This document shows, in pieces, positions 18,688 through 21,372 of a stretch of 64,000 nucleotides of DNA. This DNA comes from Eledone cirrhosa (lineage: Eukaryota). The notes under the pieces are model-generated. The model had not been told where the DNA came from. It saw only the letters and a program-made list of their open reading frames with translations, and did not search any database. Numbering within the stretch: the stretch's first letter is position 1; every line of letters begins with the position of its first letter. The translations under genes and the position numbers were made by a program. The DNA is taken from contig OZ024745.1 in NCBI GenBank assembly GCA_964016885.1, positions 78,678,001 to 78,742,000 on the forward strand. Reading direction: 5' to 3'.

Positions 18688-18690
<3 letters not shown>

Positions 18691-19798
18691 GACATAGAAT
18701 ATTCGAAAATATTCTGTATGTTTATAATAAACATTTTGAAGACCTAATCGCTATAGAATAGAATACGTCACGTATTACAATTAGATTCTCGATAAAAGCA
18801 AGGGAAGTAATCTACGCGTTTCATTCTCGTTAGAAATCATCAGGACTACATATCCAGTGCTTTTATCGAGAATGACACAGCTAGAGACTTATAGAATACT
18901 TAGCTGTGTACAGGAACTGGTTTGAAAGAGCGGTTGCCGGTCCGGCAGAAATTAGAAATTGGAATAAATGCTCTGAAATAGCGATATATATGTGAATATA
19001 GACATAGAATATTCGAAAATATTCTGTATGTTTATAATAAACATTTTGAAGACCTAATCGCTATAGAATAGAATACGTCACGTATTACAATTAGATTCTC
19101 GATAAAAGCAAGGGAAGTAATCTACGCGTTTCATTCTCGTTAGAAATCATCAGGACTACATATCCAGTGCTTTTATCGAGAATGACACAGCTAGAGACTT
19201 ATAGAATACTTAGCTGTGTACAGGAACTGGTTTGAAAGAGCGGTTGCCGGTCCGGCAGAAATTAGAAATTGGAATAAATGCTCTGAAATAGCGATATATA
19301 TGTGAATATAGACATAGAATATTCGAAAATATTCTGTATGTTTATAATAAACATTTTGAAGACCTAATCGCTATAGAATAGAATACGTCACGTATTACAA
19401 TTAGATTCTCGATAAAAGCAAGGGAAGTAATCTACGCGTTTCATTCTCGTTAGAAATCATCAGGACTACATATCCAGTGCTTTTATCGAGAATGACACAG
19501 CTAGAGACTTATAGAATACTTAGCTGTGTACAGGAACTGGTTTGAAAGAGCGGTTGCCGGTCCGGCAGAAATTAGAAATTGGAATAAATGCTCTGAAATA
19601 GCGATATATATGTGAATATAGACATAGAATATTCGAAAATATTCTGTATGTTTATAATAAACATTTTGAAGACCTAATCGCTATAGAATAGAATACGTCA
19701 CGTATTACAATTAGATTCTCGATAAAAGCAAGGGAAGTAATCTACGCGTTTCATTCTCGTTAGAAATCATCAGGACTACATATCCAGTGCTTTTATCG
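18688..19798 (-). mobile_element. 310-bp tandem array (non-LTR retrozyme), ~3.6 units, ribozyme on the minus strand
   Basis: gacatagaat recurs at 18691, 19001, 19311 and 19621. Hammerheads lie at 18807-18849, 19117-19159, 19427-19469 and 19737-19779. Confidence 0.88.
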
Positions 19799-21372
19799 CT
19801 ATTTCAGAGCATTTATTCCAATTTCTAATTTCTGCCGGACCGGCAACCGCTCTTTCAAACCAGTTCCTGTACACAGCTAAGTATTCTATAAGTCTCTAGC
19901 TGTGTCATTCTCGATAAAAGCACTGGATATGTAGTCCTGATGATTTCTAACGAGAATGAAACGCGTAGATTACTTCCCTTGCTTTTATCGAGAATCTAAT
20001 TGTAATACGTGACGTATTCTATTCTATAGCGATTAGGTCTTCAAAATGTTTATTATAAACATACAGAATATTTTCGAATATTCTATGTCTATATTCACAT
20101 ATATATCGCTATTTCAGAGCATTTATTCCAATTTCTAATTTCTGCCGGACCGGCAACCGCTCTTTCAAACCAGTTCCTGTACACAGCTAAGTATTCTATA
20201 AGTCTCTAGCTGTGTCATTCTCGATAAAAGCACTGGATATGTAGTCCTGATGATTTCTAACGAGAATGAAACGCGTAGATTACTTCCCTTGCTTTTATCG
20301 AGAATCTAATTGTAATACGTGACGTATTCTATTCTATAGCGATTAGGTCTTCAAAATGTTTATTATAAACATACAGAATATTTTCGAATATTCTATGTCT
20401 ATATTCACATATATATCGCTATTTCAGAGCATTTATTCCAATTTCTAATTTCTGCCGGACCGGCAACCGCTCTTCCAAACCATTTCCTGTACACAGCTAA
20501 GTATTCTATAAGTCTCTAGCTGTGTCATTCTCGATAAAAGCACTGGATATGTAGTCCTGATGATTTCTAACGAGAATGAAACGCGTAGATTACTTCCCTT
20601 GCTTTTATCGAGAATCTAATTGTAATACGTGACGTATTCTATTCTATAGCGATTAGGTCTTCAAAATGTTTATTATAAACATACAGAATATTTTCGAATA
20701 TTCTATGTCTATATTCACATATATATCGCTATTTCAGAGCATTTATTCCAATTTCTAATTTCTGCCGGACCGGCAACCGCTCTTTCAAACCAGTTCCTGT
20801 ACACAGCTAAGTATTCTATAAGTCTCTAGCTGTGTCATTCTCGATAAAAGCACTGGATATGTAGTCCTGATGATTTCTAACGAGAATGAAACGCGTAGAT
20901 TACTTCCCTTGCTTTTATCGAGAATCTAATTGTAATACGTGACGTATTCTATTCTATAGCGATTAGGTCTTCAAAATGTTTATTATAAACATACAGAATA
21001 TTTTCGAATATTCTATGTCTATATTCACATATATATCGCTATTTCAGAGCATTTATTCCAATTTCTAATTTCTGCCGGACCGGCAACCGCTCTTTCAAAC
21101 CAGTTCCTGTACACAGCTAAGTATTCTATAAGTCTCTAGCTGTGTCATTCTCGATAAAAGCACTGGATATGTAGTCCTGATGATTTCTAACGAGAATGAA
21201 ACGCGTAGATTACTTCCCTTGCTTTTATCGAGAATCTAATTGTAATACGTGACGTATTCTATTCTATAGCGATTAGGTCTTCAAAATGTTTATTATAAAC
21301 ATACAGAATATTTTCGAATATTCTATGTCTATATTCACATATATATCGCTATTTCAGAGCATTTATTCCAAT
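19794..21372 (+). mobile_element. 310-bp tandem array (non-LTR retrozyme), ~5.1 units, ribozyme on the plus strand
   Basis: tatcgctatttc recurs at 19794, 20104, 20414, 20724, 21034 and 21344. Hammerheads start at 19931, 20241, 20551, 20861 and 21171. Confidence 0.88.
19931..19973 (+). ncRNA. Minimal type I hammerhead ribozyme (representative of 9 copies in the array)
   Basis: gtagtc-CTGATGA-t ttct aacg agaa t-GAAA-cgcg-TA-gattac: canonical core, GUA site, palindromic stem III (acgcgt). Confidence 0.88.

Follow-up and report, generated by a model that had tools for sequence, protein, structure and literature searches.

A tandem hammerhead array in Eledone cirrhosa, a likely retrozyme with the insertion signature of Penelope-like elements

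The window considered here is a stretch of 64,000 nucleotides from the cephalopod Eledone cirrhosa (NCBI GenBank assembly GCA_964016885.1, contig OZ024745.1, positions 78,678,001 to 78,742,000 of the forward strand), and all positions given below are counted from its first letter. It contains a 310-bp unit with a type I hammerhead ribozyme motif, which is repeated in tandem 8.7 times in total and is arranged in two back-to-back arms within a TA microsatellite. The array is a likely new member of the animal "retrozymes", i.e., of the known metazoan class without long terminal repeats (non-LTR; Cervera and de la Pena 2020, PMC7229834; Li et al. 2026 preprint, bioRxiv 10.64898/2026.07.22.740005). 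At the same time, it carries a clear insertion signature of Penelope-like elements (PLEs), comprising a head-to-head inversion, a microhomology join, a (TA)n target, and an internal start. As the best explanation, we consider it fairly probable that the array is one young insertion of 8.7 near-identical hammerhead units, made by a PLE enzyme that copied a predicted RNA circle into the TA microsatellite. 

Tandem Repeats Finder delimits two 310-bp arrays, at 18674-19798 (3.6 copies) and 19794-21372 (5.1 copies), both with 99% matches, and a comparison with a single reference monomer agrees with this layout. The minus arm is identical to the reference over 18686-19798, while the plus arm departs from it only at 20475 and 20483, so that only two positions are substituted over 2,685 bp, and letter identity holds for seven of the eight-plus units. 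This low number of substitutions supports a young age of the array. An earlier note, made from the sequence alone, had described near-identical 310-bp units in 3.6 minus and 5.1 plus copies joined at tatcg (19794-19798), with two substitutions near 20475-20483 in a young array, and all of this is borne out. When the first base after the predicted cut is taken as unit position 1, the left arm spans unit position 255 (start) to approximately 125 (end), and the right arm, running from 137 to 165, contains four complete cut-to-cut monomers. The unit is non-coding, with no ATG-started open reading frame (ORF) of more than 30 codons round the circle, has a GC content of 34.5%, and contains one HinfI site. 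Neither a tRNA gene nor an A or B box pattern of RNA polymerase III was found in it; a sigma-70 promoter scan, which is irrelevant for an animal, remained at background level.

Nine cores of the form CTGATGA...GAAAC..GTA are present, five on the plus strand (19937, 20247, 20557, 20867, 21177) and four on the minus strand (19773, 19463, 19153, 18843). The cuts predicted after GUA fall at 19967, 20277, 20587, 20897 and 21207 on the plus strand and at 19743, 19433, 19123 and 18813 on the minus strand. In the first plus copy, six pairs form helix I (19931-36/19968-73), followed by the core (19937-43), a U.U at 19944/19957 (position 10.1-11.1) that is not a Watson-Crick pair, helix II (4 bp, 4-nt loop), GAAA (19958-61), and a palindromic helix III (ACGCGU, 19961-66) that leads into the GUA site. 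The hammerhead assignment is based on our own type I descriptor, which was matched by none of 20,000 dinucleotide-shuffled units, and on comparison with published motifs. Beyond the core, a 16-bp helix extends helix I, a 9-bp hairpin is formed at 19871/19897 and an 8-bp hairpin at 20065/20077, all three being exact reverse complements; of the 16-bp helix, the innermost minus copy has 11 of 16 nt of one strand left. The nine CUGAUGA/GAAA cores with GUA site and palindromic stem III, together with the 16-bp helix and two further hairpins, had been named in the earlier note and were thus all located.

Folded as a circular monomer, the unit reaches a minimum free energy (MFE) of -67.8 kcal/mol, compared with -48.1 +/- 4.9 kcal/mol for shuffled sequences (z = -4.0), and none of 200 shuffles was as stable. 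Helix I and the 16-bp helix are predicted to form almost fully in this fold, with pair probabilities of 0.97-1.0 for 14 of the 16 pairs of the latter. Compared with the retrozyme class, the 310-bp period lies within the range of 150-450 bp, and the joint of unit end to unit start recurs in three of three public sequencing runs with contigs. Consecutive units carry a type I motif with helices I, II and a minimal III, as seen in the nine cores, and the unit is non-coding with a GC content below 50%, in a pure tandem layout without that of LTRs and with a strongly self-paired monomer. The reading as a non-LTR retrozyme array with nine type I hammerheads, which had been put forward before, thus fits every feature that can be tested on the sequence; as an overall interpretation, it is partly supported.

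The PLE-type signature becomes evident at the junction and the ends of the array. In terms of sense polarity, the two arms diverge, so that their 5' ends meet at the junction while both 3' ends enter (TA)n. They are joined head-to-head by 5 nt of microhomology (TATCG), a length of at least 5 nt being expected at 0.9% of random junctions, and the geometry is that of a fold-back with a 113-nt loop (19799-19911) between inverted arms of 1.1 kb. Neither end of the array coincides with a cut site (unit positions approximately 125 and 165), which indicates that copying began internally. The left end sits at the single TA-rich patch of the unit, and both ends lie in (TA)n in the one insertion examined. 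Mirror symmetry halts at the ends of the element and leaves out the flanks. The substitutions at 20475 and 20483 have no mirror counterpart in the left arm either; from this it follows only that they arose after the copying or are errors.

In PLEs, an inverted, 5'-truncated copy beside a partial tandem, with a tail at one end and microsatellites as targets, is a typical layout (PMC8557442), and head-to-head repeats have been interpreted as self-priming (Arkhipova et al. 2013, PMC3846280). The central strand flip, which the earlier note had emphasized, is confirmed; it is not a new property, being the ordinary head-to-head inversion of PLEs that recurs in other elements of the window, and as such it points to the helper machinery. 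Likewise, the non-integer copy numbers, previously taken to fit rolling-circle reverse transcription, do fit a circle and are not diagnostic of it, given that PLE arms of 1.3 and 1.2 units are found next to the array and that a linear multimer fits equally well; internal initiation on linear tandem RNA also yields non-integer copies (PMC11167929). The shorter arm lies wholly inside the longer one in two of the two non-tandem elements of the window that allow a judgement, as a fold-back predicts, which is weak evidence.

The same features may be viewed as the outcome of DNA-level events, i.e., amplification of a satellite as DNA, by unequal exchange or via extrachromosomal circles, followed by inversion through replication fold-back next to fragile (TA)n tracts, so that reverse transcription would have played no part here. 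The window contains several inversions and numerous long tracts of TA, which is in line with such a scenario, and short microhomology with a 113-nt loop is also compatible with DNA fold-back repair. Against this scenario speak the mirror symmetry, which ends at the element and excludes the flanks, the head-to-head sense polarity shared with the neighbouring PLE, and the outer ends, which meet (TA)n at different unit positions; hence, we hold it to be unlikely.

An element of the same plan as the array at a larger scale lies 0.7 kb to its left. This neighbouring PLE has a 4,199-bp unit, present as 1.3 and 1.2 units in two arms on opposite strands, whose 5' ends are joined head-to-head via 3 nt of microhomology (TCA, 13095-13097) and whose 3' outer ends both lie in (TA)n. 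The arms differ by five substitutions and an 18-bp in-frame deletion in one of them, and their ends are 164 nt apart. Their ORFs are near-identical (832 and 826 codons, stop to stop) and contain RWR, DKT, CNCRANRTC (a CxCx5C linker), CNLC (CxxC), CQH (CxH) and a GIY-YIG-like motif. The Hydra clade of PLEs is defined by RWK, DKT, the CxCx5C linker, CxxC and CxH, a C-terminal GIY-YIG and a (TA)n target (PMC8557442), so that, by its motifs and target rather than by a tree, the neighbouring element is assigned as a putative Hydra-clade PLE. Its protein has 305 relatives at E up to 0.001 and no match in Pfam; the best named matches of two retroelement proteins of the window, at 39% and 60%, are from Argonauta hians, which weakly points to an octopod host. 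Hammerheads are reported to be universal in the Hydra clade (Craig et al. 2021, PMC8557442); exact and one-mismatch scans of both strands of the neighbouring PLE found no hammerhead core. The element is young, and it has an unusually long 3' region of 1.7 kb as well as an Asn-rich insert before the endonuclease.

The proposed assembly route of the array implicates several steps, which are deduced from its layout and from the retrozyme and PLE families. Transcripts of several units would first cut themselves behind each GUA, probably through hammerheads acting in pairs, before the pieces are ligated into 310-nt circles. A (TA)n-targeting PLE endonuclease would then nick the microsatellite, and the reverse transcriptase (RT) would begin within the RNA, without requiring homology, at unit position 165, which marks the right end, and proceed for 5.1 rounds. 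The 3' end of the complementary DNA (cDNA) may subsequently fold back on a 5-nt complement 113 nt away, a junction that is present in the sequence, and be copied back for 3.6 units; alternatively, a second cDNA may be primed from the other target strand and joined at the microhomology. The second arm would finally be joined to the target by pairing at the TA-rich patch of the unit, as its observed register suggests. In vitro, PLE RT starts inside the RNA in the absence of target homology and nicks and extends both target strands (PMC11167929), and both the 2-nt overlap at the right end of the array and the internal start indicated by its end registers resemble this behaviour. A read-through transcript of the completed locus would form 1.1 kb of double-stranded RNA, for which reason the locus would more probably trigger silencing than act as a source gene.

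The unit is also found in public sequencing data. When the stretch 19794-20134 was queried, 20 of 24 listed runs, from 17 studies (16 when the possible source is left out) and with 18 organism labels, contained 65-100% of the 31 sampled words (31-mers) of the unit; no RNA run is among the listed runs that contain it, and two further runs from the same sample as X18, one of the runs that contain it, have none of its words. Contigs or reads were compared with the array for four of the 24 runs (X1, X16, X20, X23), bearing in mind that run contigs cannot separate an RNA circle from tandem DNA and that contig depths are not copy numbers. Run X1, which may be the source, contains one closed 340-nt contig identical to the unit, while X16 and X20, which belong to other studies, contain low-depth contigs (5.1 and 3.3, respectively) in which the unit end runs into the unit start. 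In the latter two contigs, an A at 19944 closes the U.U to A-U, and another A is present at 19952 in loop II; the A at 19944 lifts the predicted pairing of helix II from 0.13-0.15 to 0.92-0.93. In these two contigs, such an A-U closure is the pattern expected if the modelled fold matters. The X20 contig begins and ends at the single HinfI site of the unit, joined to GATC, and would thus be a proximity-ligation product, hence tandem DNA. The raw Hi-C run X23 yielded no reads in 1,938 million letters, which correspond to about 1% of the run and thus constitute no test; the stretch 17551-26898 has no DpnII site. A second contig of X1, aligned to 20083-20118, represents a diverged relative of the unit, about 70% alike by eye over approximately 96 nt in this one contig; its counterpart of the hairpin at 20065-20084 has one compensatory and one broken pair and a GAAA instead of a UUCG loop.

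The run labels are not readable as a host range, since library carry-over or mixed samples are at least as likely; related hosts are a further candidate explanation. Taken at face value, they would suggest that the unit is a self-cleaving circular RNA (or viroid-like agent) now spreading between species and endogenised by local TA-targeting Penelope enzymes, with the array as a fresh copy, which we regard as decidedly unlikely. Metagenome contigs gave no match to the hammerhead pattern and none to a 20-nt unit pattern. In viral contigs, 30 matches to a loose core, none with a helix I of more than 3 bp, and one isolated 18-nt match were taken as chance.

For the inverted arrangement itself, the runs lead to a further consideration, namely that the tandem unit is real and that a chimera formed during library preparation or assembly accounts for the flip, or for the copy number. 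The junction is covered in none of the compared runs, and several near-perfect inversions occur within 22 kb. Such a chimera is highly improbable given that neither the flanks nor the two substitutions are mirrored, that the arms of the neighbouring inversion are distinguished by five substitutions and the 18-bp deletion and end 164 nt apart, and that such layouts are documented for PLEs (PMC8557442, PMC3846280).

Several observations weigh against a PLE enzyme copying a self-cleaved circle. In the allele of the window, the active fold lies 5.1 kcal/mol above the minimum, and helix II has pair probabilities of 0.13-0.15. The evidence for the A-U closure comes from two contigs of low depth (3.3 and 5.1); among 180 single changes around the core, 12 raise the pairing equally. 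Rfam hammerhead models gave no match at gathering score over the whole window; at E up to 10, the region 18600-21450 yielded 11 matches, all of them microRNA models on TA tracts and none a hammerhead, so that the Infernal check proposed in the earlier note turned out negative. Among nine predicted retrozyme dimers from Xenopus, a single one was cleaved in vitro (Li et al. preprint), and PLE insertion did not require hammerhead cleavage in vitro (Frangieh et al. 2024, PMC11167929). Target-site duplication is not callable in a microsatellite, where an overlap of 18 nt was obtained and 9% of random tract pairs reach at least 16. The junction stretch 19769-19792 is at depth 0 in four of four runs, in which contigs drop rare forms, so that the flip is documented by this assembly alone. 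Finally, no similarity of the unit was detectable to the neighbouring PLE or to a further two PLE-like fragments, where 0 of 10 comparisons exceeded the shuffles, and none above shuffles to a long interspersed nuclear element (LINE) of the window. With neither shared sequence nor a detected hammerhead, the neighbouring PLE illustrates the type of machinery and not necessarily the helper itself.

A number of these points leave room for an insertion that is made by a PLE in the same way from a different template, i.e., a linear multimer transcribed from a tandem array already present, or linear monomers between which the RT jumps, the unit being derived from a PLE pseudo-LTR and the hammerhead being a weak passenger, with no circle. 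We consider this a possible though rather doubtful alternative. The neighbouring PLE has non-integer tandem arms without sign of a circle, PLE RT favours unprocessed RNA and starts internally (PMC11167929), Xenopus retrozymes have been traced to PLE pseudo-LTRs with eight of nine not cleaving (Li et al. preprint), and the active fold is disfavoured in the allele of the window. The letter identity of the seven units is, on the other hand, the result to be expected when one template is copied repeatedly, the circular fold of the unit is far more stable than that of shuffled sequences, RNA circles were found in all three animals tested, namely coral, mussel and axolotl (PMC7229834), and no parent PLE sequence was found within the window. 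Identical units are most simply explained by a circular template, although copying of a linear multimer would be indistinguishable in its outcome.

The array bears on the question of which retroelement moves the retrozymes of animals, and of whether reverse transcription or the tandem expansion of a PLE end in place gives rise to new arrays. PLEs have been named as candidate movers (PMC7229834), and Li et al. argue for their role from co-occurrence and pseudo-LTR homology (preprint). The locus described here offers a different kind of evidence, i.e., a protein-free hammerhead array with a PLE insertion signature beside a coding PLE of like build, and owing to its small unit, PLE RT could be tested in vitro on a circle of 310 nt. 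Given that both the retrozyme class and the inverted PLE layout are already described, the finding is neat and will not surprise the specialist.

The coordinates of the features are collected in Table 1, which includes two fold-back elements to the right of the array. The element at 23275-23571 has 69-bp perfect inverted arms that join in a palindrome of 24 nt, a tail of 95 nt at one of its sides, and a minimal core; its tail shares a 12-nt motif with that of the insertion at 32530-32799. Adjoining the latter, a 5'-truncated PLE (31580-32470) has a hammerhead core at 31787 (-) along with part of a GIY-YIG sequence (Pfam E 7e-5). A 66-nt island in a TA tract (24803-24868, minus strand), one of three islands tested, matches the core region of the array's hammerhead at 20 of 23 nt, a match equalled by 11 of 1,000 shuffles, and is possibly the stump of a related element. 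Further inverted arms of about 250 bp with a 40-nt tail lie in (TA)n at 27590-28750, and a 100-bp inverted pair at 59447-60284 contains degenerate hammerhead-like cores at 59498 (-) and 60234 (+). Two LINE copies with APE endonuclease and RT (100-7030) are convergent, tail-to-tail, and 98.7-99.4% identical, the one lacking its 3' end and the other having an internal deletion; their polarity is opposite to that of the PLE inversions. A 195-bp dispersed repeat (41152-41949, 55687-56073, 38663-38855, 54009-54198), which also occurs as a four-copy and a two-copy tandem, is presumably a common octopus repeat resembling short interspersed nuclear elements, and no hammerhead core was found in it.

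Table 1. Positions of the array, its predicted ribozyme parts, target tracts and neighbouring elements in the window
Feature	Position	Strand	Remarks
Left arm	18688..19798	-	3.6 tandem units, sense leftwards; 0 substitutions vs reference monomer
Right arm	19794..21372	+	5.1 units in tandem, reading rightwards; spans unit positions 137-165
Head-to-head (5'-5') junction	19794..19798		5-nt microhomology TATCG common to both arms
Type I hammerhead motif, first plus copy	19931..19973	+	Predicted cut after A19967; recurs at +310, +620, +930, +1240
Type I hammerhead motif, innermost minus copy	19737..19779	-	Predicted cut 19743; repeats cut at 19433, 19123, 18813
16-bp helix	19907-19922 / 19980-19995	+	Extends helix I past two internal loops, closes ribozyme domain
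Left (TA)n/TATATG target tract	18197..18688		Last 16 nt match TA patch of unit 14/16, best of 310 registers
Right (TA)n/TATATG target tract	21373..23270		2-nt overlap with unit; 6/16, near median of 5
Putative Hydra-clade PLE	7580..17970		Minus arm 7580-13097 (ORF 9276-11774), plus arm 13095-17970 (ORF 13958-16438)
Fold-back element	23275-23571		About 300 bp, in (TA)n; PLE-type hammerhead core on - at 23470
Fold-back insertion	32530-32799		In (TA)n; 127-bp near-perfect fold-back with tail

In comparison with known systems, the array shares with Hydra-clade PLEs the partial tandems, an inverted 5'-truncated head-to-head copy, insertion into (TA)n, and an internal RT start. Its hammerhead also has the Hydra-clade form CUGAUGA-U-(4 bp)-tetraloop-(4 bp)-U-GAAA, the U.U under helix II being the commonest form with 14 of 25 Hydra-clade PLE families (our count from File S2 of PMC8557442). 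Unlike PLEs, the array is without an RT or endonuclease ORF, its unit measures 310 bp instead of 2-4 kb, and each arm contains many full units; its helix III is shorter than that of most Hydra hammerheads, and no pseudo-LTR sequence link was found in the window. An autonomous PLE or PLE fragment was rejected, given that an ORF is missing and that no similarity to the PLE sequences of the window was detected.

A superficially related arrangement is that of 5'-inverted L1 copies formed by twin priming, which comprise two non-overlapping parts of one linear RNA and a poly(A) tail. As in twin priming, the cDNA 3' ends of the two arms are joined by short microhomology and the outer ends are attached to the target; in contrast to it, each arm of the array is a multiple copy of one and the same unit, and a poly(A) tail is absent.

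Published retrozymes, as far as described in the cited passages of PMC7229834 and the preprint, differ from the array by its two diverging arrays, the microhomology join and the (TA)n setting, and the sequence of the unit is unrelated to anything reached by similarity searches. Neither cephalopod retrozymes nor inverted arrays of retrozymes were encountered in the literature searched, where the supplements of PMC7229834 (invertebrate list) and of the preprint may hold one; the passages of the 2020 review PMC7761336 cited here describe neither. The kinship with metazoan retrozymes is seen in the non-coding tandem units of 150-450 bp with one type I hammerhead each, a GC content below 50%, the lack of LTRs, and a self-paired predicted circle. 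Within this class, the helix III of the unit resembles that of axolotl HHR_Amex1, in which a single pair is capped by a palindromic tetraloop (PMC7229834), while the U.U at the base of helix II resembles that of HHR_Amex2. Both axolotl hammerheads cleave poorly as monomers and well as dimers (PMC7229834), and the weak palindromic helix III of the unit matches this amphibian type.

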